From the IMG/VR virus record IMGVR_UViG_3300021440_000015, positions 1 through 64,000 of that record: 64,000 nt of DNA, one strand, 5' to 3'. A program made the translations under genes and the position numbers. Of the stretch, positions 4,341-62,696 are shown one piece after another (position 1 is the first letter of the stretch; each line of letters opens with the position of its first letter). The notes below the pieces were generated by a model, which saw only the letters and a program-made list of their open reading frames with translations, was not told where the DNA came from and searched no databases. This DNA is from a virus.

Positions 4341-4399
4341 GAGATATCGCTAGTGGTTTAAGTTACACATCTGTAACACTGCTGGTTAAAGAGATACTC
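4341..4399 (+). ncRNA. Conserved structured 5' leader, copy 1
   Basis: gagatatc gctagtggt TTAA gttac acatct gtaac actgctggt taaaga gatactc ATG; three nested stems. Confidence 0.75.
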
Positions 4400-4729
4400 A
4401 TGGCAATCAAAGTTTGCAACGCTTTCAGTCTCAGCATGGTGTCGGCGCTCGTCGCCGACATCAAAGTGATCCAAATCACCCCGGCTGAAGTCAAGGAGTT
4501 TTTGGAGGTAGGGGTGGAAAGCTGTGTCGGTCACGCCGACACAGCCAATGTGTTCAGCCAGCAGCTGGGGGTGCAAATCCCCGCTGCTCGTGCGACAGTT
4601 AGTCTCGCCGATGGCGAGATGATTCTGGTGGGCCAGTACTCTGGTCCACGGCTCCCAGAGGGGGCGACATCGCTGCCCGAAGGGGCAAACATCAAATGGG
4701 TAGTCTTGCTCGTGCGATATCCGGTGTGA
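4400..4729 (+). CDS. DUF1874 / STIV B116-like small protein (cassette 1 cargo)
   Basis: Motifs NAFSLSM, SCVGHADTA, VGQYSGPRLPEG; paralog of 21153..21491; visibly GC-richer than flanks. Confidence 0.7.
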   Translation: MAIKVCNAFSLSMVSALVADIKVIQITPAEVKEFLEVGVESCVGHADTANVFSQQLGVQIPAARATVSLADGEMILVGQYSGPRLPEGATSLPEGANIKWVVLLVRYPV

Positions 4730-4765
4730 GAACCGTACCATACTGAAAAAGTTCTTCAGTATGGT

Positions 4766-4809
4766 AAATAACACTCTTAGCCTGTTATGGCTAAGAGTGT
4801 TATTTTTTT
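4766..4809 (+). terminator. Cassette-type intrinsic terminator
   Basis: aaataacactcttagcc tgttat ggctaagagtgttattt + T run; preceded by a second 12-bp hairpin taccatactgaa...ttcagtatggta. Confidence 0.8.
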
Positions 4810-4846
4810 ATTCACAGCTTTCATTTTTTGATTATGGAAAACAATT

Positions 4847-5308
4847 ATGTCAAATTTTGAAATTGATTTTGAGATGATGCGGAAGTATGACACTGTACTT
4901 CTACCTATTGAAAAAGGTGTCAAATATTACTTTCCTGAGAACAACATTATCCTCTACCCAAGTATACTTTTTGTATTTGGTTCTAACCTAGCTGGTAGAC
5001 ATGGTAAAGGTGCTGCTCTTAAAGCTGCTACAGACTATGGAGCTATCTACGGTGTGGGTGAGGGCAGAATGGGTAACTGTTATGCCTTACCTACTAAGTC
5101 GCATATGCTGCAACCTCTACCTCTAGAAGAAATAGAGAAAAGAGTAGAGACCTTTAGAATAGTAACCACTATACTCAAAGACAAAACTTTTTTTGTCACA
5201 GCGGTAGGTACAGGGTTAGCTGGATATAAGCATGAGCAGATAGCTCCTATGTTTAAAGGCATAGAGAGATGTTGGATGCCTTATGAGTGGAAACGTTTTT
5301 TAACCTAA
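4847..5308 (+). CDS. Macrodomain-like phage protein (A1S_2505-like family)
   Basis: Motifs FVFGSNLAGRHGKGAA, YALPTK, VTAVGTGLAG. Confidence 0.6.
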   Translation: MSNFEIDFEMMRKYDTVLLPIEKGVKYYFPENNIILYPSILFVFGSNLAGRHGKGAALKAATDYGAIYGVGEGRMGNCYALPTKSHMLQPLPLEEIEKRVETFRIVTTILKDKTFFVTAVGTGLAGYKHEQIAPMFKGIERCWMPYEWKRFLT

Positions 5309-5318
5309 GGAACCGATC

Positions 5319-5606
5319 ATGGAAAACCTCATTATTGAAGAAGCAAACGGCAACACCACAACTAAACCTTTAGCAGCTAGTAAAGAAGAATTGAATAAAG
5401 CTATCACAGATCTGGAGTTGAAGCTGACGATCCTGCAAACCAACGCATCGACTGTTGAAGCAGGGACCGACTTCAAACTAGAATCATTGAGCAACAGCAT
5501 TTACGCTCTTCAGGAACAGCTGGATAAGACCAGAAGAATGTTTGTTGTATTGTCAGTGGTAACTTTCATCGCAGTAGCTCTTGTCGTCAATCTTTACTTC
5601 AATTAA
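5319..5606 (+). CDS. Coiled-coil protein with C-terminal membrane anchor
   Basis: Heptad-like segment, then MFVVLSVVTFIAVALVV; SD aagga upstream. Confidence 0.6.
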   Translation: MENLIIEEANGNTTTKPLAASKEELNKAITDLELKLTILQTNASTVEAGTDFKLESLSNSIYALQEQLDKTRRMFVVLSVVTFIAVALVVNLYFN

Positions 5607-5608
5607 CT

Positions 5609-5938: not shown

Positions 5939-6787
5939 ATGAAGCCTTATATAGAACTCCTCAAGGACATCCGTGATAATGGACATGATCACCCTGATCG
6001 CACTGGAGTAGGTCGTCGATCTATTTTCGGTAGACAAGTCCGATTCAACATGAACGATGGTTTTCCTTTGGTCACTACTCGTAAGATCTTCTTTCGAGGT
6101 ATGAAAGAAGAATTGCTTTGGTTTATCGCTGGTGAGATTGACAACACTTTGCTGAATGAAGCAAATGTGCATATCTGGGATAACTGGGCTGTCACTGAAA
6201 AAACAGTGGATAAGTTCATGGAATACTTCTTGTCTAAGTTTGAATCAGAAGAAGATCGTCAGAGTATGGCCAGTAATGAAATACTCATGGCTAAACTTCG
6301 TGAACAGATCAGTGAGCGTATCGGATCTATCGGTCCTTTGTACGGTTTTAACTGGCGCCATGCCCCTGCTGATGAGATGAGTAACATCCACCAACTTCTC
6401 AGAAACAAACCACCTATCGAAGACATTCCTTCTGATAAAGTAGAAGCTTTTAAAGAAGCTTATAAAGAATATCTTGCTTTTAAAGAAGCGGAAGGTGATG
6501 GAACAGATCCTGTTACAGAGATTGAGTTCATTCAGAAGACTTATGTCTCTAAGGTAGATCAGTTAGGTATTCTTTTGGCTGAACTGAAGAACAATCCTTA
6601 TTCTTCGCGTCTTGTGGTAAGCTCATGGTTACCACAATTCATTCCTGACAATAAGATCTCTCCTGATTTGAATGTATTGTTGGGCGCGGGTGCTTTGGCA
6701 CCATGTCACGTTATGTTCCAATGCTTTGTACAACCTGCTCTCAATGAAGGCGGTAAGAAACGTTTGAACCTACTTATGTTCCAGCGT
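5939..6787 (+). CDS. thyA: Thymidylate synthase, exon 1
   Basis: DRTGVG, FPLVTTRK, ELLWF, catalytic LAPCH; ends ...MFQR at intron. Confidence 0.92.
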
Positions 6788-7090
6788 TAACAACTGAGCG
6801 CTGTGTAGATAGAAATATCTATTTGAAAATTCCTCTAATTGCTGGAAACCCTTGTTAGACTACTAAACCAAAGCGGAGTGTGAAAACACATACGTAACGT
6901 GTTTGAAAATTAGTAGGTAGAGACAATCAGCAGCTAAGCTCCTTTAAACTGGAGAAAGTTCAACGATCATCCCGTAAGGGAGTAGGATCTAGCAGATCCG
7001 AAACGGGGAACCCTTAACAGGTAAAGCTGAAGGTGGTGATATGATCTAATCTTTACAGAGATGTAAAGCCACAGTTAAAAACTGTGATTG
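6788..7090 (+). mobile_element. Group I intron (303 nt, no ORF) in thyA
   Basis: Splicing joins QR|SVD, restoring QRSxD; P1 cagcgU/Gcgctg; P10 caactga/tcggttg; core AATTGCTGGAAAC, AATCAGCAG, GTTCAACGATCA, GATATGATC; terminal G7090. Confidence 0.92.
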
Positions 7091-8996: not shown

Positions 8997-9061
8997 GTTG
9001 TAAAGTCCTTAAGGTTTATCGTCAAAAGATATCCAGGTTGACTAGATATCCTTATAAAGTA

Positions 9062-9084
9062 TTTTGGTCACATATACTTCACTT
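9062..9084 (+). promoter_or_regulatory. Putative early promoter, cassette 2
   Basis: ttttggtcacatatacttcactt. Confidence 0.6.
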
Positions 9085-9141
9085 GACTATCGTTACAGTT
9101 TAATCGAAGCATCTTTCGAACTTGTGACTAAGGAGATAGTA
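9085..9141 (+). ncRNA. Conserved structured 5' leader, copy 2
   Basis: gactatc gttacagt TTAA tcgaag catc tttcga acttgtgac taagga gatagta ATG. Confidence 0.75.
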
Positions 9142-9783
9142 ATGGAACAGTTTTCCCTGACATTGGGTGTTGTGTTTTGTACGGTGGTTGCTTTGACCAC
9201 AGGCTGGTCCCTGTTCGGGGACCGGTTGAAGGAGAGTCAAGTGGTCAGGCTTGTCCTGACCATCTGCTGCACCACTTGGTGGTGCAAGACCGCCAAGCTC
9301 CCTAACGGGAGAAAAGTGAAGTGGGTCGAGATGCCAAATTGGTATTGGTTGACCACTATGGTAAGACATCCTGTAACAGGGAAAGTCTTTATGACGAACC
9401 TCACTGATATTGTTGGTAATTTTGGCGGTGGGATGACCATGTCGATCGGTAAGGTCGATTTGGTGCTGACCATGAAAGGTCTCTACAGCGAGGAGACCCT
9501 GAAGTTCATTACGGAGCATGAATTTGGTCACCTTAAGGGTCAACATATGTTCCGACTTGAAGATGCCGGATTGGCAAAATCAATTCAGCGTTTTGAGCTG
9601 GAAGCAGATGCTTATGCGGCATCTGTGGTTGGTTTCCAACAAGCGTATTACGCTTTGATGGAAATTCGTCAGGTAATGACGGATACTCTTCTGGATCATC
9701 CAGAAATTCTGGAATCCCTGGAAGAGCGGGTGTTGGCAATGCGTGAGAAGTTCAAAGCTTCTCAGCAGCCTGTGCTCTGCTGA
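9142..9783 (+). CDS. Membrane-anchored zinc metallopeptidase, M48/M56-like (cassette 2 cargo)
   Basis: HEFGH and ELEADAYA motifs; N-terminal hydrophobic helix; SD aaggag before ATG 9142. Confidence 0.7.
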   Translation: MEQFSLTLGVVFCTVVALTTGWSLFGDRLKESQVVRLVLTICCTTWWCKTAKLPNGRKVKWVEMPNWYWLTTMVRHPVTGKVFMTNLTDIVGNFGGGMTMSIGKVDLVLTMKGLYSEETLKFITEHEFGHLKGQHMFRLEDAGLAKSIQRFELEADAYAASVVGFQQAYYALMEIRQVMTDTLLDHPEILESLEERVLAMREKFKASQQPVLC

Positions 9784-9832: not shown

Positions 9833-10210
9833 TTAACTAGGTAGAAACAAAGATTCGTCTGTGTTGGTAGCTACTGACCTAAGCTTTCTAATTGGAATAT
9901 GTTGTATTTCGTTGATATCTTCAGGGATAGGCATGCCCTTAGGAAACTTCAAAATGAAATACTTATAGTCGTCGTTGATCACTGTAGGTAAACGATGTTT
10001 ACCACGCTGCACTGTCAAATAAGTTTCTCTGTTGTGTTTAACCAGATGGATGTAGATTTCTAAGTCTACTTCCTGATCTAGCTGCCTGCTTCCAGAGGTA
10101 TAGCCTTTCTCAGCCACTTCTTTCACAAACTGATCTTCTGCAACACCACCTCTTACCAAAGCTTTAGCCTCAGGAGAAAGTTGATGAGGCGTAACTACGA
10201 ATGTACCTCT
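9833..10210 (-). CDS. dnaB: Replicative DnaB-like helicase, exon 2
   Basis: RGTFVVTPHQLS, LDQEVDLEIY, QRGKHR: DnaB C-terminal motifs. Confidence 0.85.
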   Translation of the reverse strand, partial: RGTFVVTPHQLSPEAKALVRGGVAEDQFVKEVAEKGYTSGSRQLDQEVDLEIYIHLVKHNRETYLTVQRGKHRLPTVINDDYKYFILKFPKGMPIPEDINEIQHIPIRKLRSVATNTDESLFLPS

Positions 10211-10703
10211 CTTTTTGTCCAGTGGATTCGCTATTTTCCACCCGGTGCGCTTACACACCCGCCTATACTTTCATACAGGAACAGACCATATCTTCACCCT
10301 CTGTATAACAGTAGGGTGTTCTCCGCTTCGGATCGCTTGATCCTACACCTTGCTTAAGGGCTGGCCGTTGAACTTTCTCCAGTTTAAAGGAGCTTAGCTG
10401 CTGATTATCCAATTCTTATATTTTTCAAACTATCACGCTCATCGTTTCCGATCACGTTGTAGTATATAAGACTCTAAAGGACTTCCCAGCAATTCAAAGA
10501 AAAACATTAGAGCATCTCTACTCTAACGACCTGTAAATGTTTCCTTTTGTACAAGTTCCACCTGTATTCAAATACCGTGTAATTGTTCTTGCTTGAAGAC
10601 TAATTGATTTAGCTGCCTGTCTTATTGACTCAGCAACTATTTTAGTACCATCCGGCTTAACAATTAAAATTTTACTAAACGGTTTTGATCGTAACATTAG
10701 TTA
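10211..10703 (-). mobile_element. Group I intron (~493 nt) in dnaB
   Basis: Minus strand has GAATTGCTGGGAAG, AATCAGCAG, GTTCAACGGCCA, GAAGATATGGTC; predicted junction RNFCAT|RGTFVVTPHQLS; exon ends in U, intron begins TAAC and ends in G; exact sites less certain than for thyA. Confidence 0.85.
10518..10697 (-). CDS. 59-aa intron-encoded NUMOD1/IENR1-like HTH mini-ORF (homing endonuclease remnant)
   Basis: Hand translation MLRSKPFSKILIVKPDGTKIVAESIRQAAKSISLQARTITRYLNTGGTCTKGNIYRSLE; no nuclease domain. Confidence 0.55.
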   Translation of the reverse strand: MLRSKPFSKILIVKPDGTKIVAESIRQAAKSISLQARTITRYLNTGGTCTKGNIYRSLE

Positions 10704-11864
10704 AGTAGCGCAAAAGTTTCTTACTCGTCTGATCAGATCTCTCATGTCTGTACCGATAGGACCAGATGTAATACATCCTGTCGTAGGCACCATAGCTAAA
10801 TAATCCAGAAACAAACCTTCGATGCTGTAACCCTGGGCTTCCAGTTCAATAACTTTGCTACAGATGTTGCGATAAGACCATTGAGTAGGATCTACCCGCA
10901 TCATTTTAACATGGAAACCGGTTTGCTGCAACTCTTTCTTTACGTAAGACGCCATCTCCTCAACAGAGAGATCTTTCATACCTACGTATTCTCTTGTCTC
11001 GTTGTACTTAAGATACTGATACAAGAACTGAAGATTGTTTACAAGCTCATCCTCAAAAGAGATCCTCAACAATAAAGGTTTCTTACCCGGATCTATATTG
11101 TTAGGTTGGTTCAATCTAGCAATTTGGGCAAATAAAGAAAGATTGAAACCTGTCTTGTATTTATGCTGGAGTGCCGGAGTTATGATAAACTCAGCTGGAC
11201 GTATGCCACCCTGCAACATATCGTTAAGATCAGTCCAACCTGTCTTATAGATACGAGCACCTTCATTGTTCTGCTTGATAGCTGAGAACACTTCTCTCAA
11301 AGATTCATCACTACCCAGATCCACCTCACCCATCACAGCAGGATCTTTAGAGCTTGTGTTCAGCTGTAAAGGTTCTAGTTGACTAATGAGTTCAGCAATA
11401 TAACCGTTGATATCTTTGATGCTATCTCTTTTGTAACGAAAATCCATGCTGTACTTACTAAGCACCTCACCGATCTTGCGCTCTCTGAAATAGTTATTAA
11501 TTGTCTTTCTTGTGTTGACAATAGAACGTTTCAAATTACTTTCAGGAATATTATCCTGCAAACCAGACTGTATGACTTCAAATAAATTGGTGTCATACAT
11601 GCAGTTGTGCTTAATGGTTTGAATCAGAGCGTTTGTATCATATTCATGATCTGGTGGATAACCACACATTTCAAGAACGGTTGTTTTTAATCGAACGATG
11701 ATCTCTTTGTCTGTATTTACATTCAAGGTAGAGGCATCGTCAATGATCTTAATGCTCTCAAGCACAGTTCTTACCAAGTCAGAACTATTTTCTGTTTTCT
11801 GTTTCAGCTGACTTTCACGGAACAAAAGGGTAATGCTTTTAGCAAGCAAAAGTTTATCATCCAT
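10704..11864 (-). CDS. dnaB: Replicative DnaB-like helicase, exon 1
   Basis: KTGWTDLNDMLQGG, variant Walker A ALQHKYKT, ISFED, Walker B LFLDY; divergent from the capsid gene as in phiKZ-like phages. Confidence 0.88.
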
Positions 11865-49120: not shown

Positions 49121-49121
49121 C

Positions 49122-49155
49122 CTTGTAAACTTTTTCAGTCACATATACTTAACTT
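49122..49155 (+). promoter_or_regulatory. Putative early promoter, cassette 6
   Basis: cttgtaaactttttcagtcacatatacttaactt. Confidence 0.65.
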
Positions 49156-49308: not shown

Positions 49309-49394
49309 CTTCCCAAGAGGTTGACAACTAACCTCTTTAAATAAATGGTTGGGTCGTAACCTGCCCTGACGCTTGGCCAGCAAAAAGGGATTAC

Positions 49395-49445
49395 TGATCT
49401 GTCTAAGTTCACATGTCGTGAATACAGATTAACAGGAGAAACAAA
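49395..49445 (+). ncRNA. Degenerate internal copy (8) of the leader core
   Basis: tgatctGT CTAA gttcac atgtc gtgaat ACagatta acaggag aaacaaa ATG. Confidence 0.55.
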
Positions 49446-49751: not shown

Positions 49752-49793
49752 AAAATCATCCCTAGCCCTTACAGGCCGGGGATGATTTTTTTT
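49750..49793. terminator. Cassette-type terminator, probably bidirectional
   Basis: aaaaaatcatcccta gcc cttaca ggc cggggatga + T8. Confidence 0.8.
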
Positions 49794-49796
49794 GTT

Positions 49797-51727: not shown

Positions 51728-51755
51728 ATCGTGTCTTTACCTGAAAGAAAAAAAA

Positions 51756-52151
51756 ATGGAGCTAAAACCATTAAAGACCATCATCAGGGTGGTCTATACC
51801 AGTTTTAAAATAGGCTTTAATGTTAAAAAAGGGGAGCTAGACCCTTTCAGCAAGAAGTTCAACATCTGGCTTGCTATCATATTAATTATCATAGTCAGTG
51901 TACTTACCTTTGGTGCTTTGCTAATATATAATTCAGTGTCCACTGGTGTCACTGTTATGAAGCAGAGAAAAGAAATAGCGCTGTTAAATAAAGACTTGGT
52001 TTCTAAACAGTTGACTATAGAACTAGATAAGAGGGATCTTGAAAATTGCAGAGTCAATGAAAGAGCCTATGAGATAGTCTGTGGGAAGCTTAGACGAAAA
52101 CAACCTGAGGAAATGGTCAATGAAATCGTCAATCTAAAAAGTAACAAGTAG
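51756..52151 (+). CDS. Membrane protein with coiled coil
   Basis: IWLAIILIIIVSVLTFGALLI; start moved to ATG 51756. Confidence 0.6.
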   Translation: MELKPLKTIIRVVYTSFKIGFNVKKGELDPFSKKFNIWLAIILIIIVSVLTFGALLIYNSVSTGVTVMKQRKEIALLNKDLVSKQLTIELDKRDLENCRVNERAYEIVCGKLRRKQPEEMVNEIVNLKSNK

Positions 52152-52187
52152 ATTTATCAACTGACTTGTTATTTAAAAGAGAGCTGT

Positions 52188-53660
52188 ATGGACACACAAA
52201 TCAATGCCGTGGTTTACATCGACGGTTCTGCCAGACCCAATCCAGGTAAAATAGGGTTTGGCACTCACGGCTATCTGTTTAGTTTAGAAGGTAAACCTTC
52301 TGTTAAGTTAGATGGTGGGTATCTTCTCACCAATAAAGGCTATAAGAAACAGCTTAAAGACGGCATCGTCGAAGTATCTCCTACGCAGTTTATAGATTTC
52401 ATTGGTACCTCAGCTGTGGATGGAACCAACAACCGAGCTGAGGTCTTTGCTTTTCTATCCACGCTTAAAGAACTACAACAGCATAAACCCAAGTCTATTC
52501 ATTTTCTCACAGATAGTGAATATGTCAAGAAAGGTTTGACTGAGTGGTGTAAAGGCTGGGAAAGAAATAATTGGATCAAGCAAGATGGTCTGCCTGTGGT
52601 TAATGCAGATATCTGGATGGAAGTCTATGCTTACTATAAGCAACTTCTCTCTGTAGGACAAGAGATCACGATTGAGTGGGTCAGAGGTCATAACAACGAC
52701 ATGGGCAATACCAGAGCAGATGCTTTGGCTGTGATCGGTATGAACTACTCCACAGACAATCTCTGTAAGGATCATTATACCTACAGCGACCCTAAGGGTT
52801 ATTGGAAATCATCAGTAGACCGCCATCCCTTCCTGAACTTTAAAAGAGTTTATTTCAATACCACCCAAGAGTATAACATAGCTGGCAGCTATTTCCAAGC
52901 GGAACCAGGTAAAGGCGTGGGTGATTTCATCATCGGTAAGCGTATACCTGAAACTGGTTTTGCTGTGGTGAGACTCTATGAGCCTGAAAAAGTCATTGAG
53001 GATGTCAAAGCCAAACAAATTGATCATGCTAATAATCACAACTCTATAGTGATGATGAAGCTAGATCGGGTATACAGCAAAGAAGTCTATCCTTATCTAG
53101 AGAAACATGGTAAGTATTGTTTACTTGGTGACAAGAAGTCTAAAGGGTTGAACTTCCTAGATAATCAATCGGTTACCGTAGAGCTGAATCCAACTAACCT
53201 GTCCATGAGAGCAATCGAGACTTTCAACTTCCTTGAGGATATGTTGATTAAGTTTCAAACTTACTCTAAAACAGGCTGTGATCTGCCTGATAACCACAAC
53301 GGTTTTCAGATCCATGATGTTACAAGTACATTCTATGACCTGGAATCTAAACTTGTAAAAAAGGAGTCCGTCACTCAACATGTTCTTAAACCTGAATATA
53401 CTTCAGCTCTGAAAAACATTAAGCTGTCTATCTCTGTCACCTACAAGGAAAGAACTGACAAGATAGACCTACCTGTGTTATTCGGTCTGGACATTCCACC
53501 CCGGAATAACCTTAAAAAGCTAGAGGATCATTCTCCTAAGATTTTTTTAATCTCTTGGAGAGACTCAGAAAGAACTCTTCGCTATGCATTTGTAATAGAA
53601 TGTAACTCTGGTATCGGTATATGGTCTAACTATTTTGCCGATAGAATTTTTCTTAACTAA
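52188..53660 (+). CDS. rnhA: Ribonuclease HI with C-terminal extension
   Basis: YIDGSARPNPG, TNNRAE, TDSEYV, WVRGH, GNTRAD. Confidence 0.9.
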   Translation: MDTQINAVVYIDGSARPNPGKIGFGTHGYLFSLEGKPSVKLDGGYLLTNKGYKKQLKDGIVEVSPTQFIDFIGTSAVDGTNNRAEVFAFLSTLKELQQHKPKSIHFLTDSEYVKKGLTEWCKGWERNNWIKQDGLPVVNADIWMEVYAYYKQLLSVGQEITIEWVRGHNNDMGNTRADALAVIGMNYSTDNLCKDHYTYSDPKGYWKSSVDRHPFLNFKRVYFNTTQEYNIAGSYFQAEPGKGVGDFIIGKRIPETGFAVVRLYEPEKVIEDVKAKQIDHANNHNSIVMMKLDRVYSKEVYPYLEKHGKYCLLGDKKSKGLNFLDNQSVTVELNPTNLSMRAIETFNFLEDMLIKFQTYSKTGCDLPDNHNGFQIHDVTSTFYDLESKLVKKESVTQHVLKPEYTSALKNIKLSISVTYKERTDKIDLPVLFGLDIPPRNNLKKLEDHSPKIFLISWRDSERTLRYAFVIECNSGIGIWSNYFADRIFLN

Positions 53661-53674
53661 CTCGTTCGTTTATC

Positions 53675-54121
53675 ATGTTAACAACTACAATGATGGAGCG
53701 ATTTTCAGACAAAGTACAATCAGCCGTCGGTTTTATACTTCCCGGTATGTTTAAGAGACTGATGTATATCTCCAGTCTTCTTTCTGTGATAGATGTGCAA
53801 CCCACGTCCGATCAGGCTTTGGCTAGAAAACTCAATGACATTTTTCAATTGGGCAAGAATCCTTCCGCAGTAACAGACACTATGTTTGTTAAAGAAGTGT
53901 TGTGGAAAGAATTTGCTCATGAGAAAAGTTTTACCTATCATGGTAAAAGCTTTAATCTAGATCAATTCAAAAGCGGTAACTACACAGCTTCTGATCTAGA
54001 CAGCATGGCTCGACACTTGATTGAAACCACACCGCAGTGGATCAAGTATGCCAATGAAGATGTCATGCGCTATGATATCAAGAAATTGGTACGAAGCCTG
54101 CCTGAACTGAGTGCAGCTTAA
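53675..54121 (+). CDS. Hypothetical protein
   Basis: 148-aa ORF following rnhA. Confidence 0.6.
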   Translation: MLTTTMMERFSDKVQSAVGFILPGMFKRLMYISSLLSVIDVQPTSDQALARKLNDIFQLGKNPSAVTDTMFVKEVLWKEFAHEKSFTYHGKSFNLDQFKSGNYTASDLDSMARHLIETTPQWIKYANEDVMRYDIKKLVRSLPELSAA

Positions 54122-54134
54122 CAAAAAAAGCATT

Positions 54135-54172
54135 TAAGATGCTACAGGACCATCAGGTCCTGTAGCATCTTA
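54135..54172. terminator. Hairpin terminator between convergent genes
   Basis: taagatgctacaggacc atca ggtcctgtagcatctta. Confidence 0.75.
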
Positions 54173-54177
54173 TTTCT

Positions 54178-55014
54178 TTACTTTGTTACTTTATCTAAAG
54201 TCTTGACAAGCAAATCTACGGACTGAGAAGCCTGCCTTACTTTATATTCAAAATAAGCACATAGCTCAACATATCTAGCCACAGACATTGCACACTCTGA
54301 CAGTTGTTTAGATGCATAGCCAGAAATAGTTTGTATTTCATTATTACTCACTATTTTGTCTATATAACTCACACATTCATTAACAGATCTTTGAATTTTC
54401 TTAAGATTGTCAACGTGGTTGTCTTTTGTTAACTCAACAACAGCATCCACAACTAAACTAACATCTGAAAATCTGGAAATAACTTTTCTTAGTTCAGCTT
54501 TAGATAAATTATCATCTTCTTTAAAATAAACACCAAGTTCTTTTAGAATTTGCTGTCTCTTTGCATCGGCTCTCGTATAAACTTGAGTATGCACACGAAG
54601 CGACGTTTTATCTTCTTTATTTGTGATAAAAGATGAGAGAACAAGATTATACTCCGCTATAAGTTCAAAGGCTTCTTTAAAGATTACATTTTGAACACGA
54701 TTCAAACTGTTCACATAGTCTAAGAAATTTCCTTGAAATCCTTCTGGTATTTGCACCAGCACAGATTGATATTCTAAAAAATTGTTTTGCGACAAACGCT
54801 TTGACAGAACCTTATATTCTTTAAGGATCTCTAAAGACGGATTGTCGTAACTACTTATATTTAATTTTGAAAGAATATTTGTGAGTTGTTCGCCGAGTTT
54901 TGGAAAAAAATCCTTCATTCTTGAGACTGCATTGTCCACGAAAGAAGATTCGAGAGAGATAACCTGGGCCATTTGTTCCAGGCTCTGTACCGGAGCTTCG
55001 AAATTAAGATTCAT
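54178..55014 (-). CDS. Putative head (inner) protein
   Basis: N-terminal SLE candidate protease sites; IPEGFQG; helical. Confidence 0.5.
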   Translation of the reverse strand: MNLNFEAPVQSLEQMAQVISLESSFVDNAVSRMKDFFPKLGEQLTNILSKLNISSYDNPSLEILKEYKVLSKRLSQNNFLEYQSVLVQIPEGFQGNFLDYVNSLNRVQNVIFKEAFELIAEYNLVLSSFITNKEDKTSLRVHTQVYTRADAKRQQILKELGVYFKEDDNLSKAELRKVISRFSDVSLVVDAVVELTKDNHVDNLKKIQRSVNECVSYIDKIVSNNEIQTISGYASKQLSECAMSVARYVELCAYFEYKVRQASQSVDLLVKTLDKVTK

Positions 55015-55119
55015 TGATAACTACCTTGTAAAATGAGCGCTAGAAAGCAAATGAAAAAACTAGCACGAGTTTCCATACTATGTGCAGCGTAAACCCGCTA
55101 CGTCCCTCAAGGAATAATT

Positions 55120-56526
55120 ATGATCAAACAAGGTTTTCAACCAGCTCCCAGTGTCAAGATCATGCTCAACATCGGAGCTTGTCTGGATATACCTACAGGT
55201 TTCTATGTCAAGGGTAAACACGGAGAGAGTATTTTACTAGGTGGTCTAGGTGCTTTGACAGGCATCACAGGACGTGGTAACATGTTCAAATCCACCATCA
55301 TGCATTACATGATGTTGTCAGCAGCAGATCGTCTGATGTCTACAGCTGAAACTTCTATGTCTACTTATGACACAGAAATCAACATCCACGAAGAGCGTCT
55401 TCGTCAATTGACAGACCAGTTCACTTCTTTCACAGGTAAGGATATCATTACTGACGGTACTTGGGTTATCACTGACCGCACTGTTTATCACGGTAATGAT
55501 TGGTATGAGAAACTAAAGTCTTATCTGAAAGAGAATAAGAAACAGGGTGATAGCTCTATCATGTATGAAACTCCATTTATGGAGAGAGACGGTAAGACAT
55601 TGATGAAGACCATCATCCCTACCTTTTCTGAAGTGGATAGTTTTAGTAGGTTTGAGACTGAAGATGTGGCCAGAATGCAGGATGAGAATGCCCTGGGTGA
55701 GTCAGGTGGTAACACCATCCATATGCGTCAAGGTCTGGCTAAAATGAGATTTCTGATGGAAGTACCTGGTCTAGCAGGCACACACAACCATTTCATGTTG
55801 TTATCAGCCCATCTTGGTCAAGACACAGCCATTGCATCTGGTCCATATGCCGCACCACCGCCTAAGAAACTTCAGCATATGAAGATGGGTGAAAAGATCA
55901 AAGGTGTCACAGATCAGTTTTTCTTTTTGACTAACAATTTCTGGATGGCTAACTCAGTTACACCTCTGGTCAACCAAGGTACAAAAGGACCTGAATACCC
56001 TAAATCTAGTGACAATAACGCAGCTGGTGACCTTGATCTTAATTTGGTCAGTTTGAAACAGTTGAGATCCAAGTCAGGCCCGTCAGGAAATACCATTGAA
56101 ATCATCGTTAGTCAGACCGAAGGCGTACTACCTGGGTTGACCGAGTTCAATTACATTAAAGACTCTGGGCGTTTTGGTCTAAACGGATCTTTGCAGAACT
56201 ATGCTTTGGATATTTATCCTGAGTGTAAGTTGTCTAGAACTACGGTTCGTGGTAAGTTGGATAAAGATTTAAAACTCCGACGTGCCATGAACATCACTTC
56301 TGAGCTTTGCCAGATACAAGAATACTTTAAAGCTCAATCTGAATACTTCTGCACACCAGCAGAACTCTATAAAGATTTGAAAGAGCTGGGTTATGATTGG
56401 GATATGATCCTGTCACAAACCCGTGGTTGGTGGACCGTGAATAACGAAACCCACCCACTGAAGTTTTTGAGTACCATGGATTTGCTCAGAATGCGCAAGG
56501 GTGAATATAAACCCTATTGGCTGTAA
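55120..56526 (+). CDS. uvsX: UvsX/RecA-like recombinase
   Basis: NIGACLDIPTG, Walker A GRGNMFKS, YDTE, VDS, RSKSGPSG, SQTEG. Confidence 0.85.
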   Translation: MIKQGFQPAPSVKIMLNIGACLDIPTGFYVKGKHGESILLGGLGALTGITGRGNMFKSTIMHYMMLSAADRLMSTAETSMSTYDTEINIHEERLRQLTDQFTSFTGKDIITDGTWVITDRTVYHGNDWYEKLKSYLKENKKQGDSSIMYETPFMERDGKTLMKTIIPTFSEVDSFSRFETEDVARMQDENALGESGGNTIHMRQGLAKMRFLMEVPGLAGTHNHFMLLSAHLGQDTAIASGPYAAPPPKKLQHMKMGEKIKGVTDQFFFLTNNFWMANSVTPLVNQGTKGPEYPKSSDNNAAGDLDLNLVSLKQLRSKSGPSGNTIEIIVSQTEGVLPGLTEFNYIKDSGRFGLNGSLQNYALDIYPECKLSRTTVRGKLDKDLKLRRAMNITSELCQIQEYFKAQSEYFCTPAELYKDLKELGYDWDMILSQTRGWWTVNNETHPLKFLSTMDLLRMRKGEYKPYWL

Positions 56527-56537
56527 CTTAACAAAAA

Positions 56538-56566
56538 ACATGAATGACCTTGATGGTCATTCATGT
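56538..56566. terminator. Hairpin terminator
   Basis: acatgaatgacc ttgat ggtcattcatgt. Confidence 0.65.
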
Positions 56567-56592
56567 CTCATTTACTGAAAAGAACAAACATC

Positions 56593-56922
56593 ATGAGTCA
56601 AGATTATTTTAAACCAAGAGAAGAAAACGAAATAGACCTAGTGGCAGAAGTTCGACAAATATTGCTAACGAACGGTTTAGGACAATCTATAGATGCCTAT
56701 GACAACAATCGATTTATCACAGAAGCTGCAGACAAATGCTCATCTGTTCAGCGCTTTCAGTTAAATCGTTATTTCAGCATGCAGTTGATTATGGCAACAG
56801 CTGATTCCACTGAAGAAAGATTCTGTCTTATTCCTAACGGAGATGTATCAGATTGGCTGTCTTTATTTAAAGCTAAGATATTGCCGTTTCTGATACAACA
56901 TAACCTTCCAAGATCTGTATAA
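56593..56922 (+). CDS. Hypothetical protein
   Basis: ORF; start moved out of the upstream hairpin to ATG 56593. Confidence 0.6.
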   Translation: MSQDYFKPREENEIDLVAEVRQILLTNGLGQSIDAYDNNRFITEAADKCSSVQRFQLNRYFSMQLIMATADSTEERFCLIPNGDVSDWLSLFKAKILPFLIQHNLPRSV

Positions 56923-56931
56923 GGCATAGAA

Positions 56932-57597
56932 ATGGCTAATAGAAAAGAAGCAGAATCGGTTATTATAACCTACATGGAAAAAATAGCTCCTGGTTCAGGT
57001 AATAGCCAAATCTATAAAAATATATTTGCAGCTATGACAGATGTGGACTTTGATAAATTTATCAAAGATCTAGAATCTGGTAAAAATTTCTTAGTCATTC
57101 AATTGCCTAACTTTCGTGAAACCGGAGTTACTATAGAGAATAACTTAGAAATAGCTGACGAACTGGAACATAATTTCTTTCAAAGAGTCTGGATACTCGG
57201 AAAGAAAGACACACCAGATCACATGTCACCAATAGAATCTTTGATATTAGACCTGCCTGTGAGAAGAGCATCTCAACTCCTTATTAAAAAGATATCTGTT
57301 CCTGATGATAGTAAAGTCGTAGACGCCATTACAGGACAACCAACTGGTGAGTCTAAAGGTGCTAAGTTATCTTATCCTGAATTACAGATATGCGCTGCTA
57401 TGGGGTTAGATAACTCAATGGTGGAGTTGATGAAGTATAGAGGTGGTGATAATAAAGGTCTAGTGGCCTTTAACGCTATGCTGAGTAAATACGGTCGTGT
57501 TAATTTAAAAAGCGTTGAGCCGTATTCCTCAGGCGTAGAGTCTACAAAGACCTTAAAAACTTTCTTAACATCCATGATGCTAAAGAGTACGTTGTGA
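56932..57597 (+). CDS. Virion RNA polymerase beta subunit, C-terminal part (phiKZ gp149-like)
   Basis: LPVRRASQ..KKIS, DAITGQPTG.SKG.KLSYPE, ELMKYRGGD; beta C-terminal QP..G motif. Confidence 0.8.
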   Translation: MANRKEAESVIITYMEKIAPGSGNSQIYKNIFAAMTDVDFDKFIKDLESGKNFLVIQLPNFRETGVTIENNLEIADELEHNFFQRVWILGKKDTPDHMSPIESLILDLPVRRASQLLIKKISVPDDSKVVDAITGQPTGESKGAKLSYPELQICAAMGLDNSMVELMKYRGGDNKGLVAFNAMLSKYGRVNLKSVEPYSSGVESTKTLKTFLTSMMLKSTL

Positions 57598-58280
57598 CTG
57601 AAAAAATAGCAAGACAAACAATCTTTACTGATTTAGATAGTTTACTAGATACCAGAGCTGGTTGTATATCTACATTTGGTAAAGATAGTCTAGAAACAAA
57701 TATAACACCTAGCTATTTTGACAGGTTGAGCGATAAGTTTCAAATAGAAGGTTATGGCGATAGATACAAGGCAAGAGATAAGTCCGTACTTAGTAACTCT
57801 TCACTGACACCTATCATAACTCTCATAATGGAATTCGTAGCCTCAACCTTACAAAATAATTTAAATTCACCACATGTTTTTAAACCAACAGTCATCATAA
57901 ATACATATCCTTATGTTTTAAACGATGAAGAATCTAATTTAGTTATAAGAATCATCGTAAATAAGACAAAAGAACATGCTGATGTACAGTTAGTGTTTAT
58001 GGATTATGATGAGCTAACGCCTGCATACGTGAGAAACAATGTGTCTCTTATGGTCATGTATGATGGTGTTAATTGGTTGGACACGCAGGCCGATGCTGGC
58101 AGATTTAATAAAAAAGCCTGTCCAGAAGTAGGTTTGATTGTACCGGCTATAGGCACAGGACCGGATCCTAAAATGGATAAAAATCCTTTTGAGATCATGG
58201 AAACTATAACAGCACCTATAATAGGGTTAAAGTTTTTACCTGTTGAGTCTTTCTCTCTTTTACTGAATCCGTTTAAATAA
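57594..58280 (+). CDS. Conserved jumbo-phage protein
   Basis: DLDSLLDTR, INTYPY. Confidence 0.6.
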   Translation: MTEKIARQTIFTDLDSLLDTRAGCISTFGKDSLETNITPSYFDRLSDKFQIEGYGDRYKARDKSVLSNSSLTPIITLIMEFVASTLQNNLNSPHVFKPTVIINTYPYVLNDEESNLVIRIIVNKTKEHADVQLVFMDYDELTPAYVRNNVSLMVMYDGVNWLDTQADAGRFNKKACPEVGLIVPAIGTGPDPKMDKNPFEIMETITAPIIGLKFLPVESFSLLLNPFK

Positions 58281-58322
58281 ACAATCCCATACTGCTCTTC
58301 AAAGAGCAGTATGGAGTTGATT

Positions 58323-58715
58323 TTAATTTGGCTTTGTGAAAGTTTCGTAATCTAAGTTACTAGAATCCTGATCGGTTTCACCCAATACTTTATCAGTAAC
58401 CTGATGTTTCTGATCAATGACGGGCGCCTCTCTTTGACTATCTGGTAGTCTAGCTGTGGTTCTGATGAGAATTTCTGAAAGACTTTTAGCAACAGCCTCT
58501 TGAGTCTTTTGACCATTGTCATCTGTTTTGATCTTAGCTTTACCTAAGATAGTAGCATCCATGGTTTCCATGATCTTTAAAAGAAAATACCTGTCTTTAG
58601 GATTTTCAGGCATGGCTCCTTTCTTAGTAAGTTCTCTGATCATGTCTTCTCTTAGAGAAAGACCTAATTCTAACCTACGCTTATCATCAGGATCTAATAC
58701 ATCTTCAGATGCCAT
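58323..58715 (-). CDS. Hypothetical protein
   Basis: 130-aa ORF; hairpin ccatactgctc...gagcagtatgg downstream. Confidence 0.6.
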   Translation of the reverse strand: MASEDVLDPDDKRRLELGLSLREDMIRELTKKGAMPENPKDRYFLLKIMETMDATILGKAKIKTDDNGQKTQEAVAKSLSEILIRTTARLPDSQREAPVIDQKHQVTDKVLGETDQDSSNLDYETFTKPN

Positions 58716-58742
58716 GTATGGCCCCTTTCTTTAATTAGTAAA

Positions 58743-58762
58743 GTAACATATATTTTAGTTGA
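58743..58762 (+). promoter_or_regulatory. Putative early promoter without structured leader
   Basis: gtaacatatattttagttga at the head of a 4-gene operon. Confidence 0.45.
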
Positions 58763-58793
58763 GTCGACCCACACTAACCATTCTGAGGATTCA

Positions 58794-59291
58794 ATGTTTC
58801 AAAAAATCAAATCATGGTTTCAAAAACCAAGAGAACCGACACAACAAGAAAAAACAACTAAACTTATTCGTAAACTAAAAAACTTGGATTACGGATTTGT
58901 TTATTCATCAGATTTAGCTTTGGTTAGACTTAATCTAGTCAAGAAAAATATTTCTGACTATATCAGTTATCTCAGAAAGATCAACAGGATGCTTTCAGGT
59001 AATGATGAAATCTATCCAAATTCTATTTCGAGTATTCGATATCAGATACAATTACCAGATTGGTTTATTGTAAAAGGTGGTTTTATTAACCCAAATGAAC
59101 AAATGGTTTTATTCTTAGAGGAAATAGAATCGTTCATGGATATTTATAACAAGCTTGATAATAATCATGCTCGTACCTATAATCAAGATCATAATCTGAA
59201 AATCGTGGGTAATATCTGCGGTGATCTTCTACTATTTATGAAAGATATTGAAAATGTCTGGAATCAATCCCTTCAGTCTGGATCTCAATAG
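58794..59291 (+). CDS. Hypothetical protein
   Basis: 165-aa ORF, gagga SD. Confidence 0.6.
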   Translation: MFQKIKSWFQKPREPTQQEKTTKLIRKLKNLDYGFVYSSDLALVRLNLVKKNISDYISYLRKINRMLSGNDEIYPNSISSIRYQIQLPDWFIVKGGFINPNEQMVLFLEEIESFMDIYNKLDNNHARTYNQDHNLKIVGNICGDLLLFMKDIENVWNQSLQSGSQ

Positions 59292-59991
59292 ACAAATTAA
59301 AACAGGTAGTGTTAACAATATGCTGACACGTCTCTTTATCGAGATGTTGAAAAACATGGGTGTTGACAGTATCATGTACGAGAACAGAATAGACCAGTAT
59401 ATAACGAATGCAGGTCTTCCCAAAAACATGAAGGAACTCAGTTCTGTTCGTGGTAATATCAAAAAAGAACTTGCCAAGTCATCTATGTCTTGGAAAGTGT
59501 TTTTGAAATCTATGGTTTTTCTGGGTGTCAAACAGTTTAATCTGTCTGTTACTTATAAGGACATAAATGATGTAATTAAAAATATCGAACAGCAACATAC
59601 TTTTGATTACAAAACCATTAACATGAAGTTGTTTGGCGGTACTGATAAAGAAAAAGACGATGTTGGAGAAACAAACGTTCTACATAGCCTTTATCAAAAA
59701 ATCCATCAGGACTTTGTTAATTCAGGTGTGACCGAACAGTCTATGGTCGTCAATTATGCTAAGAAAACTATGCTTAATAAAGACGAACGTGACCTGTCGG
59801 CTATAAAAGGCAGCATCAAGAAAGAAATTTCTCGTGGTAATATGACTTGGAGAGTCTTTATCAAAGGACTTTGTTTCTTGGGGATAGAACATTACGTCAT
59901 TGCTTTAGAAGTGATCAGGTTTGATAAAAGGGTGTTCCGAGTAGGTTTCCCTGTATCAATGACTGCCGCTGATATTGAAAATGACTACTGA
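59254..59991 (+). CDS. Hypothetical protein made of two tandem homologous domains
   Basis: RGNIKKELAKSSMSWKVFLKSMVFLG vs KGSIKKEISRGNMTWRVFIKGLCFLG. Confidence 0.65.
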   Translation: MSGINPFSLDLNRQIKTGSVNNMLTRLFIEMLKNMGVDSIMYENRIDQYITNAGLPKNMKELSSVRGNIKKELAKSSMSWKVFLKSMVFLGVKQFNLSVTYKDINDVIKNIEQQHTFDYKTINMKLFGGTDKEKDDVGETNVLHSLYQKIHQDFVNSGVTEQSMVVNYAKKTMLNKDERDLSAIKGSIKKEISRGNMTWRVFIKGLCFLGIEHYVIALEVIRFDKRVFRVGFPVSMTAADIENDY

Positions 59992-60000
59992 TGAAAATAT

Positions 60001-60543
60001 ATGTACAAATCAAACATAGTATCGGTACTCAACGCTGTTGACAGCAGTTGTGTCAAGCAACTCATTCTGTCAAAAACTGATAAAGATGCTGGGAATGTGT
60101 TAAATGAATTCTTTGAAATGGCTTTGGGATTCCAACCTTTTTATGCTTTCATGCCCACGCGACTAGCTCATTTCGTAGACAGGATTCATTCTGACTCTGC
60201 ATTGCGTGATTTTGTTTACAACACAGCTGAAAGTATGGTCTTCAAACTGAGATGTTTAAAAACATCTGAAGGTGTTGATGAGTACGCAGAGCTTGTTAAA
60301 ATAATAGCATCCATACCTTCAGTGGCAAGAGATCACAACAATCATCTTTCACCAGAAGCTTTTCTTTCGACCGTGGATATCGCCAGTAGATATCGAGACA
60401 TCACAGGCAGCAGCACATCCTCTTCTGTAAAGCTGCAAGCGTTTCTTTACGCCAATCCCATTATTGTGATGTTCTATGTGTTATCTCAACATGTAAATGA
60501 ACTTCAGACATTTAACGAAATCTACATCAAGGATAGAAAATAA
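60001..60543 (+). CDS. Hypothetical protein
   Basis: 180-aa ORF in operon. Confidence 0.6.
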   Translation: MYKSNIVSVLNAVDSSCVKQLILSKTDKDAGNVLNEFFEMALGFQPFYAFMPTRLAHFVDRIHSDSALRDFVYNTAESMVFKLRCLKTSEGVDEYAELVKIIASIPSVARDHNNHLSPEAFLSTVDIASRYRDITGSSTSSSVKLQAFLYANPIIVMFYVLSQHVNELQTFNEIYIKDRK

Positions 60544-60545
60544 TC

Positions 60546-61412
60546 ATGGCACAAAAATCTCTCTATGACGAACTTGTTCGTATTAAAAAAGCTCGGCTGA
60601 AGAACTCCGAATACGACAACAACAAACAATCAAGGTCTGGTTTTAGAGACAATCGTCGCTTTAATAATGAACCAGAATACATGAAACCTTTCAAAGATGT
60701 TATGTCTTTGCTCGGTGATGGTGTGGATCACATCAATGTCTGGACAGGCGCTGAAACAGATTTGGGCATGGTCTTGGATCACGCAGGTCCTTTGCCGCTT
60801 AATCATCACGTCTTTGGTTTCTTTGACAACATGACCAGCTTTTGGTTTTACCTACAGAGTGTGGAGCGTGATGACAGAATCCGCAGAATGACACCACAGG
60901 CTGCTTTTAAGTTCAGTAAAAAACTAACGTTTCAAAAGGTTCTGAATTTCAAAGCTATCATAGCTGATTCTAATTGGCAGCGGATTAAATCTAAACCAAT
61001 ATTGATGAATCTGCTTAAGAAATCGACGTTGCCATTTGACGCATATATGGTCAACCCAGAAACTGGTTTTAGAACAAGACCTGCATTCTTCGGTTGGTTG
61101 GTTTGGTCTTTTGAAGAGATTCGACGAGCCGTTAAAGAAGACCGCGAACCAAACTTCAACGAAATCATGGATCGTAAAGATTCTGATATTTATGATTTTG
61201 CTGTAAGACATCTTCAACATCCTAATAACAGCAGTGGTGAAAACCGTAAAAACACGGTGAGTGAAAATCTACTGAAGGATGAACATAGCAATTTGTATGA
61301 AAAGACTGAAGTCCCACAAAGTTACTCAGACGCAATTGAAGTAATTCCTGATTCAATTCCCGAAGTAGCTTTGGATAATAACCAGGCAACGCCTGTTGTT
61401 GTTCACAACTAA
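60546..61412 (+). CDS. Hypothetical protein, possibly NADAR-like fold
   Basis: DGVDHINVW...TDLG, HHVFGFF..MTSFWFYL, STLPFDAY. Confidence 0.5.
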   Translation: MAQKSLYDELVRIKKARLKNSEYDNNKQSRSGFRDNRRFNNEPEYMKPFKDVMSLLGDGVDHINVWTGAETDLGMVLDHAGPLPLNHHVFGFFDNMTSFWFYLQSVERDDRIRRMTPQAAFKFSKKLTFQKVLNFKAIIADSNWQRIKSKPILMNLLKKSTLPFDAYMVNPETGFRTRPAFFGWLVWSFEEIRRAVKEDREPNFNEIMDRKDSDIYDFAVRHLQHPNNSSGENRKNTVSENLLKDEHSNLYEKTEVPQSYSDAIEVIPDSIPEVALDNNQATPVVVHN

Positions 61413-61502
61413 GTCTTAAATCAGGTAAGAACGACAGGACCCTAGGGTCCTGTTTTTTTTTTCTGTTCGCAATCTTATAGTTGTTAAACAAAGGATTGAG
61501 AA

Positions 61503-62570
61503 ATGGCAATAGCTTCAAAACGTTTTTCCATTATAGGAGAAGAGACTAATTTAAGCATTACAGATATAAACGGTCTAGAAGATACGTTTATACGTAACGA
61601 CCCTGATGCTGATTACAGTGAAATAAGTGATGAGTTAGAAGAGTTTGTCCAGGATATGATGGACGAAGTACCTTTTGACTATGAAGATGCTATCGATGAA
61701 GCCACCAGAGCTACTAAAGATCTGATAGCTGATATGAAAGATGTGAATCTCTTAGATGTCAAAGAGATGGATAAGAGAGTACAGGATCTGTTTCCAGATA
61801 ACCCTGTAGCCAGGTCTGTGTTCACACAGATGTCTGACAAATGTAAGAGAGAGCCTCTTAGCATGCAAGGGTTGGGTAAACCTTATGACCCTAGTGTTTC
61901 TTGCAACGGTAGAAAAACCAATACTAAGAATAACAGCTGTAATGCAGGTAAGTATGGAGATATACTTAACAAGCTAACAGGTGGTGCTTATAATTCTTCT
62001 TATGAAGATTTGAACGCCATGTTGAAGAAAGCCATGGCTTTGGCTTCCTTCGGTTACAAAATGAACATGTGTGGTGTGTTCAATGCTGTTACCAAAGACA
62101 TGACCAACAAGCCTATGCTCTCCAGAGCCTCTGCTGGCCTTCTAGGCATGCTTAGCAAGTCTAGCAATAGCCTAGGTGCCCTAGACGTGATAGCGAGCTC
62201 TACAGGCTTATCTCCTTTAAGAGAATTACCTGGTGCTTTATCCATGACTCTATCCTCTTTCAAAATGCCATCTGGTATGAAGGAGTTTGATATGGCTGAG
62301 ATGTCCGATCGCATGATGGGTGGAGCTGAGTTGCTAGATGGTGAGTTTGACAGAAGTGAAGATATGTTATCAATCTCTGAGTTTGGAGAATACAACGAAG
62401 ATCTTTCAGATGTCATGACTGCCAGAAGAACAGCTATAGCTATCGATGAAGACAGTTTGGATTTTATACCTGATTCAGATCAAGTCTTTTTAAGTTCTGC
62501 TTATGAAGCTGCTGGAACAGATGACTTCTATAGTGATGCGGCTGGATTGGTGAGTGAGGATCTTTGGTGA
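61503..62570 (+). CDS. Acidic hypothetical protein
   Basis: 355 aa; D/E-rich termini; followed by an 18-bp-stem hairpin. Confidence 0.6.
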   Translation: MAIASKRFSIIGEETNLSITDINGLEDTFIRNDPDADYSEISDELEEFVQDMMDEVPFDYEDAIDEATRATKDLIADMKDVNLLDVKEMDKRVQDLFPDNPVARSVFTQMSDKCKREPLSMQGLGKPYDPSVSCNGRKTNTKNNSCNAGKYGDILNKLTGGAYNSSYEDLNAMLKKAMALASFGYKMNMCGVFNAVTKDMTNKPMLSRASAGLLGMLSKSSNSLGALDVIASSTGLSPLRELPGALSMTLSSFKMPSGMKEFDMAEMSDRMMGGAELLDGEFDRSEDMLSISEFGEYNEDLSDVMTARRTAIAIDEDSLDFIPDSDQVFLSSAYEAAGTDDFYSDAAGLVSEDLW

Positions 62571-62579
62571 AGGCTGAAT

Positions 62580-62619
62580 AAAAGTTTACACAGGGGATTT
62601 CCCCTGTGTAAACTTTTTT
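62580..62619 (+). terminator. Terminator whose 3' arm overlaps the cassette 7 promoter
   Basis: aaaagtttacacagggga tt tcccctgtgtaaactttt. Confidence 0.75.
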
Positions 62620-62638
62620 AGTCATATATATTCTATTT
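62607..62638 (+). promoter_or_regulatory. Putative early promoter, cassette 7
   Basis: tgtaaacttttttagtcatatatattctattt. Confidence 0.6.
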
Positions 62639-62696
62639 GAGCTATTACCAATGTTTAAGTTACACATCTGTAACACTATTGGTCAAGGAGATACTC
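62639..62696 (+). ncRNA. Conserved structured 5' leader, copy 7
   Basis: gagctatt accaatgt TTAA gttac acatct gtaac actattggt caagga gatactc ATG. Confidence 0.75.

Follow-up and report, generated by a model that had tools for sequence, protein, structure and literature searches.

The 64,000-nucleotide (nt) stretch of DNA considered here, referred to throughout as the window, comprises the opening 64 kb of an IMG/VR virus record of 120,257 bases (IMGVR_UViG_3300021440_000015, G000 in what follows; completeness estimate 44%) from a freshwater phiKZ-like jumbo phage with multisubunit RNA polymerase (RNAP) genes. Scattered among the core genes are short, repeated units in which a folded leader RNA precedes a small 'cargo' gene and carries that gene's Shine-Dalgarno (SD) sequence. 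The original prediction had recognised seven such leaders in the window, and all seven are indeed found where it placed them, each 57-60 nt long when counted from the first G to the base before ATG. Their features are given below, with scores for the leaders from a covariance model (R1). The comparisons are with G006, a syntenic relative of 164 kb (completeness estimate 60%) in the opposite orientation, with blocks 77-96% identical, which overlaps positions 1-93233 of G000 and runs past its start.

4305-4340 (+): promoter block of cassette 1; predicted start at G 4341
4341-4402 (+): leader 1, P1-P2-UUAA-P3, SD bulge UAAAGA, ATG; 75.5 bits
4400-4808 (+): cargo 1, 109 amino acids, STIV_B116-like (PF08960), and terminator hairpin with T-run at ~4772-4808
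9049-9084 (+): promoter block of cassette 2
9085-9144 (+): leader 2; 70.2 bits
9142-9833 (+): cargo 2, 213 amino acids, M48-like HExxH match that is weak and falls short of the Pfam cut-off, and terminator
21059-21094 (+): promoter block of cassette 3
21095-21155 (+): leader 3; 81.4 bits; synteny with G006 stops exactly at the ATG
21153-21541 (+): cargo 3, 112 amino acids, paralog of cargo 1, and terminator; G006 has an empty cassette
21544-21579 (+): promoter of the same class without leader, before the open reading frame (ORF) at 21630-22856
26836-26871 (+): promoter block of cassette 4; synteny with G006 restarts inside it (26849)
26872-26933 (+): leader 4; 75.5 bits
26931-27490 (+): cargo 4, 168 amino acids, no family, and terminator
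44672-44710 (+): terminator of the preceding gene, directly adjoining the cassette 5 promoter
44711-44746 (+): promoter block of cassette 5
44747-44807 (+): leader 5; 70.3 bits; G006 differs in leader variant and cargo from the start site on
44805-45477 (+): cargo 5, 208 amino acids, no family, and terminator; replaced in G006
49120-49155 (+): promoter block of cassette 6
49156-49218 (+): leader 6, P1 GAUGUAU/GUACAUU; 52.6 bits
49216-49308 (+): cargo 6a, hydrophobic peptide of 30 amino acids ending RRRR; the G006 version has 28
49396-49448 (+): promoter-less leader core before the second cistron
49446-49796 (+): cargo 6b, 101 amino acids, and terminator; replaced in G006 from just past the SD to the stop
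58725-58760 (+): promoter of the same class without leader, before the ORF at 58794-59291
62603-62638 (+): promoter block of cassette 7; the T-run of the preceding terminator hairpin forms its 5' part
62639-62699 (+): leader 7; 78.4 bits; synteny with G006 stops at the ATG
62697-62960 (+): cargo 7, 70 amino acids, Ala-rich, and terminator; replaced in G006

Each unit is a self-contained cassette, made up of a terminator, the 36-nt promoter, a leader of ~60 nt, one small cargo gene (rarely two) and an intrinsic terminator, since terminators flank it on both sides: a hairpin and T-run directly follow nine of ten cargo genes, and in several cassettes the promoter adjoins or overlaps an upstream terminator. 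The cargo genes had been described as unrelated to one another, which holds for most of them; those at 4341 and 21095, however, are paralogs (52.7% identity, E 4e-37, both PF08960). This STIV_B116-like pair is the only related one, and a Pfam search with nine cargo proteins left seven without a match and one with a weak match below the cut-off.

The three-helix leader RNA

The leader consists of three stacked helices, the first of which, P1, joins the first bases of the transcript to the spacer between SD and AUG. A 4-nt YYAA bulge separates P2 from P3, the GGA of the SD sits inside a bulge of 6 nt, and the AUG comes immediately outside P1. The stem halves proposed originally do pair, and minimum free energy folding returns the arrangement P1-P2-4-nt bulge-P3 in six of the seven copies, with that at 21095 adopting an alternative fold. 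The stems vary freely yet stay paired; RNAalifold predicts 13 pairs, 11 of which carry a compensatory change.

Covariation could be assessed more widely, as the contig as a whole holds nine canonical copies and not the seven first counted; the extra two lie at 83109 and 84216 of G000, and a promoter-less copy (49396-49448) comes in addition. Across the nine, 88.4% of cells pair, as against 74.1% after shuffling (a value reached in none of 500 shuffles), and 12 of 22 pairs change on both sides, with slid controls pairing at 31-49%. Extending the set to 22 distinct copies, drawn from three sources (G000, G006 and four metagenome contigs), gives 90.2% of cells paired versus 74.2% in shuffles and 28-47% in slid controls; here both partners change in 13 of 21 pairs, among them all six of P3 and six of the eight of P2, although these counts overstate the number of separate events, as the copies are paralogs and orthologs and therefore not independent. 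Several copies are also mosaic, the leader at G000 83109, for instance, sharing its P2 with 21095 and its P3 with 49156. Compensatory change can be followed between orthologs too, both in P1, where GAUGUAU/GUACAUU becomes GAUACAU/GUGUAUU, and in P2 of the promoter-less copy, where a U-A pair becomes C-G.

That selection acts on the RNA had been argued from the G-U pairs on the sense strand. Such pairs make up 64 of 451, and in 21 of the 22 copies the plus strand reaches a lower fold energy than its reverse complement (mean -14.9 versus -9.2 kcal/mol). The view that the whole 5' untranslated region (UTR) forms one RNA-level module is thus borne out, the fold being backed both by covariation and by this strand bias.

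One part of the structure behaves differently. The bulge (UUAA, or CUAA/UCAA in divergent copies) and the G-C and U-A pairs that flank it never covary. Saying so requires some correction of the prediction, which had taken the bulge and the 'AC' as invariant: the AC is GC in two G006 copies, and the bulge reads CUAA or UCAA in promoter-less copies. Two further possibilities for this region were set aside, namely a pairing (seen by eye) of the UUAA bulge with the start of the SD bulge, which is not kept in all copies, and a k-turn, there being no G-A pairs beside the bulge.

Searching with R1 returns exactly nine copies in the contig (52.6-81.4 bits), eight full copies in G006 together with one promoter-less copy and one decayed remnant, and five copies across four metagenome contigs. 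A descriptor scan of G000 gives 18 matches, compared with a mean of 4.45 in 20 shuffles, and takes in all nine copies plus 49403 and 111848. A variant at G000 111838 has a similar fold that is no better than its shuffles (z -0.48); it is a possible further copy.

The promoter-less copy precedes the second cistron of the 49156 cassette and has P2, a CUAA bulge, P3, the SD and the ATG, with P1 absent in G000, and it is kept in both phages with compensatory change. Since this copy is maintained without P1 in G000, it is the bulged hairpin beside the SD, and not the 5'-end helix, that makes up the conserved core. (In a trial alignment for a P1-less model, the two length classes of P2 fell into different registers.)

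As to whether the leader is already known, no Rfam family matches any of the leaders at gathering score or at E<=1, in agreement with the original prediction. Across the whole window only two group I introns match at gathering score, and at E<=1 the six leader-bearing loci searched give four weak matches, none overlapping a leader. Among 16 capsid-relative records R1 has strong matches in G006 only, the nine weak matches inspected (15.5-21.4 bits) being merely SD-ATG regions, and nothing similar to the leader was found in 14 more distant jumbo relatives. A pattern scan of viral contigs returned 10 stretches in seven contigs, and among the six additional contigs R1 matches only G018, which, judging by its identical R1 scores, is another assembly of the G006 type. 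The same scan gave 50 stretches in metagenome contigs, of which five are true, and 13 in cellular genome contigs, all at or below 23.1 bits and taken as chance. A blastn search with promoter and leader against deposited phages yielded nothing better than E 0.9, and literature searches found no description of this leader. Judged by sequence comparisons that cover one phage lineage, the three-helix leader with its built-in SD is a new, lineage-restricted RNA family.

Promoters and cassette exchange

Every canonical leader is preceded by a conserved block of 36 nt, roughly cTTGTAAAcTTTTTCAGTCACATATACTTAACTT, followed by GA. Within it TTGTAA and TATACT stand 15 nt apart, with the spacer between them also conserved, and an ATATAYT element resembling a -10 box ends 7 nt upstream of the G. 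The core pattern occurs 11 times in the window (2.08 expected), and on the contig as a whole 12 times on the plus strand and not once on the other; searching the contig with a weight matrix yields 16 sites, of which nine have a canonical leader. A scan for the sigma-70 consensus called no site at 44711-44746 or 49120-49155. We infer from its sequence that the block is probably an early promoter of a phage polymerase, with transcription starting at the G. At G000 119217, beyond the window, a promoter of this class stands directly upstream of a sequence resembling a hammerhead ribozyme (CUGAUGA ... GAAAC).

A comparison can be drawn with the virion-RNAP early promoters of AR9 and phiKZ-type jumbo phages, whose transcripts are made early and do not depend on newly synthesised protein. 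In those phages, too, an AT-rich block resembling a -10 element ends 7 nt before a G (PMC5312081, PMC10914365), conservation reaches well beyond two hexamers, the promoters stand before small early-type genes, and the phages have a multisubunit RNAP. The spacing and the G start fit the AR9 consensus, AAATATATATTAT-N6-G (PMC5312081), but the sequence is only similar to it. Within the parts of these two papers considered (PMC5312081, PMC10914365) no shared folded leader is described; short RNAs derived from phiKZ 5'UTRs are ascribed to premature termination (PMC10914365).

The same promoter core (CCATATACTTA-N5-G) recurs in a sister lineage, G013 (56% capsid identity), upstream of a different leader with two hairpins. 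This is a leader of ~95 nt present in nine copies on the minus strand of G013 (L147-L154; for example at 143826, 137100, 117573, 42288 and 5509), with a near-invariant 5'-terminal hairpin beginning at the G, a second hairpin with covarying stems, GGAGGTG and the ATG.

When positions 1-93233 of G000 are aligned with G006, 20 unaligned gaps of at least 100 nt remain, and six of their 40 edges fall inside promoter-leader units. As such units take up 1.07% of the sequence, 0.43 would be expected (binomial 4e-6). A further five edges coincide with cargo stop codons. Six of ten cargos are missing from G006 or replaced there. The counterpart of the 21095 cassette (reverse-complement coordinates 91865-91995) is empty, consisting of promoter, leader, ATG, three codons, stop and terminator; at 44747 the leader variant and cargo of G006 diverge from the start site on; and at 49396 and 62639 the replaced stretch of cargo runs from the SD or ATG to the stop codon. 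G006 lacks the cassettes at 83109 and 84216, and a leader remnant fused to a T-run stays behind. The remnant P2/P3 hairpin joined to a T-run at G006 reverse-complement coordinates 155477-155537 could give a tiny non-coding transcript.

A metagenome contig has a complete cassette inserted cleanly where G006 has only the terminator, and a cargo family starting M..TCQFG occupies two different loci in different strains. Within the four retained cassettes the leader is identical to its ortholog at 222 of 235 positions (94%), as against 1301 of 1641 (79%) for the cargo coding sequence. The edges of the cassettes are points at which genes are gained, lost and swapped between related phages. Plain homologous recombination would be sufficient for this, because the break points sit at homology edges; it has also been proposed for the PeSL cassettes discussed below (PMC2839356).

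Sequencing runs bear on the same loci. Contigs of the DNA run X1 fit the window up to 44748 or from 45430/45431, with unlike letters beyond, these break points being the start site of leader 5 and the stop codon of cargo 5; joints that touch leader or cargo edges lead from 44807 to 49316 (side 27) and from 62645 back to 45431 (side 39). There is a hint here of several alternative cargos at the leader 5 locus within one freshwater sample. The RNA runs X6, X19 and X20, available as contigs that cannot reveal transcript start, strand or level, cover 20, 9 and 10 of 30 bins across 43001-63000, a low and patchy coverage.

The closest described system is that of the PeSL cassettes of T4-type phages (PMC2839356, PMC4122927). 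PeSLs are repeated intergenic units of ~100 nt with an early promoter, a stem-loop, an SD and a start codon; they stand before unrelated orphan genes in cassettes isolated by terminators, and mark the places where close relatives differ by insertions, deletions and replacements (PMC2839356). PeSLs can also be excised as mini-circles. The units described here share with them a composite intergenic repeat whose last part is the next gene's SD and start codon, a preference for orphan cargos, and indel or replacement break points inside the motif. They differ in several respects. The PeSL promoter is sigma-70-like (-35, -10 and an upstream AT-rich tract), whereas the block here is not called as such; and the PeSL stem-loop is a terminator upstream of, within or just before the promoter start site, whereas the structure here comes after the predicted start, has three helices and two bulges, holds the SD and lacks a T-run, with separate terminator hairpins abutting the promoter. 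In addition, the host phage is phiKZ-like, and the cassettes are scattered among core genes.

The lineage itself can be placed through its 713-residue major head protein, which corresponds to PHROG 3231 and by tblastn has counterparts in 232 deposited phages, none of which reaches 60% identity; the best match is Burkholderia phage FLC9 (42.6%), and the next are other phiKZ-like jumbo phages. G006 encodes a homolog of the phiKZ nuclear shell protein, chimallin, on the minus strand at 156073-157227 (E 1.7e-23; 26% identity over residues 230-608 of a 643-residue frame), and because so close a relative has this gene the lineage is probably nucleus-forming. A canonical leader copy (G006 160349-160410) lies ~3 kb from it.

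Other features of the window deserve a brief mention. The two group I introns matched by Rfam are at 6778-7068 (plus strand, 69.1 bits) and 10262-10563 (minus strand, 85 bits); the stretch 10207-10704 around the second does not align with G006, and perhaps only one of the two phages has this intron. The ORF for the large subunit of ribonucleotide reductase (16441-19887, 1148 amino acids) is matched by PHROG families in two separate parts, and ~1 kb inside it (gap 17724-18728) has no counterpart in G006, which may be an intein or another mobile insert; a megablast search with this gene found no match. Two large proteins with FG-GAP repeats (PF14312), at 558-2516 (E 1e-43) and 42486-44663 (E 6e-13), are without a PHROG match.

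Possible functions of the leader

The original prediction had supposed that the fold leaves the SD displayed in a bulge, and thermodynamic modelling agrees. Comparing 22 natural leader-cargo pairs, including the first 33 nt of the cargo, with 57 SD-bearing control genes, we obtain a predicted unpaired probability of 0.80 versus 0.48 for the SD, 0.21 versus 0.52 for the spacer and 0.68 versus 0.43 for the AUG (Mann-Whitney p = 5e-7, 8e-6 and 3e-4, respectively).

Synthesising these observations, we lean, with modest confidence, towards a model in which the leader is a self-folding translation-initiation module of exchangeable cassettes, one that would keep the SD and AUG exposed whatever cargo follows. 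We suggest that the fold occupies every base of the UTR that could pair with an arbitrary cargo sequence, so that with these bases tied up translation might start in a cargo-independent manner; such 'insulation' would suit a phage whose mRNAs fold fully before they meet ribosomes. Burial of the 5' end by P1 would be a secondary, stabilising effect. As folding alone leaves the constancy of the bulge unexplained, we speculate that the bulge, together with the G-C and U-A pairs next to it, provides a contact for a trans-acting factor (the ribosome or S1, or a phage protein), which would tune the whole set of cassettes jointly. The conserved promoter, the P1/SD islands and the terminators might, for their part, serve as homology patches for exchange.

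Several points weigh against this model. P1 sequesters the SD-AUG spacer, such that the fold could repress translation rather than aid it, and insulation by itself offers no reason for an invariant bulge sequence. At least seven further promoter hits of the same class drive short leaders without the fold; the module is thus not needed for expression from this promoter class, because sites of that class lack it. The sister lineage G013 uses its two-hairpin leader, in which the SD is not in a bulge. Part of the covariation may be accounted for by the copying of whole hairpins between cassettes, given the several mosaics, and the accessibility values are thermodynamic predictions on copies that are not independent.

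The main rival to this model is one that we regard as doubtful on balance: that the bulged hairpin beside the SD is the operator of a regulon, bound or cleaved by one trans-acting protein (a repressor, an activator or a RegB-like nuclease), with the fold serving to present the site and all accessory cassettes being switched together. The bulge and the flanking G-C and U-A pairs never covary, whereas every other stem position does, and the core of hairpin, bulge and SD persists without P1 and without a promoter. Precedent exists in T4, where a single factor, RegB or RegA, targets the ribosome-binding regions of early genes that are numerous and unlinked (PMC3014915); RegB prefers a GGA that is unpaired with its fourth G constrained, as in the SD bulge of the leader (PMC3014915), and such a geometry is described in the T4 review as letting RegB cut without S1 (PMC3014915). 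RegA sites, by contrast, are unstructured and A+U-rich (PMC3014915), and the sequence after GGAG in the leader misfits the RegB consensus GGAGRAYARAA given there (PMC3014915). Nor is there a match to RegB (PF10715), RegA (PF01818) or RNase III (PF14622) in G000 and G006, which are an estimated 44% and 60% complete. A YYAA-bulged hairpin acting as operator for a phage RNA-binding protein or nuclease, with regulon-wide control over cassette translation, lifetime or exit from a compartment, can be entertained only tentatively; if correct, it would amount to a dedicated post-transcriptional switch for mobile cargo genes, whose stems are free to diversify.

A role purely as a shield, in which P1 buries the triphosphate end against 5'-end-dependent decay and the bulges and SD placement are incidental, strikes us as improbable. 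5'-terminal stem-loops stabilise E. coli mRNAs, and the geometry is suitable, in that a start at the G would leave 0-1 unpaired bases at the 5' terminus (for bases 1-3 the predicted unpaired probability is 0.22), and the G013 leader likewise has a hairpin that begins precisely at the G. For this purpose, however, any simple hairpin would be enough, leaving the invariant bulge and the fixed position of the SD unexplained, and other transcripts of the same promoter class have no 5' stem. The RNase shield put forward among the original suggestions does not, as a sole function, account for the promoter-less internal copy, which is kept by compensatory change and has no P1 in G000.

It was also proposed that the leader is an export or localisation tag, taking early mRNAs out of the early-infection vesicle or phage nucleus. 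The lineage has a chimallin homolog, and mRNA exit from such compartments is described as open in PMC12908238 (a text with no occurrence of 'UTR'); yet a general tag is hard to square with a leader confined to small accessory cassettes, with the at least seven same-class promoter hits whose transcripts lack it, or with the different leader of G013, and we consider this very unlikely. Scarcely plausible, finally, is a DNA recombination site whose plus strand folds like an integron attC and is cut by a recombinase, the RNA fold being a by-product: break points do cluster at the units, the fold has extrahelical bases and variable stems, and with all copies in one orientation the strand effect is inseparable from transcription, but no tyrosine recombinase (PF00589) is found in G000 or G006, attC lies 3' of a promoter-less cassette whereas this element lies 5' of a cargo with its own promoter, contains an SD and ends at the ATG, and the break points fall at homology edges (promoter, start site, ATG, terminator) and not at a single fixed site, for which plain homologous recombination, as proposed for PeSLs (PMC2839356), is enough.

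Returning to the self-folding initiation module that we favour, R1 provides a searchable RNA motif that flags accessory-gene cassettes and exchange hot spots in an uncultivated, probably nucleus-forming lineage. Should insulation prove to be its function, the leader would be a natural, compact and cargo-independent translation-start part, taken from a system in which transcription and translation are uncoupled; should it instead act as an operator, it would be a pointer towards a new factor that regulates phage accessory genes post-transcriptionally. The motif offers a concrete substrate for studying how early mRNAs are handled in such phages.

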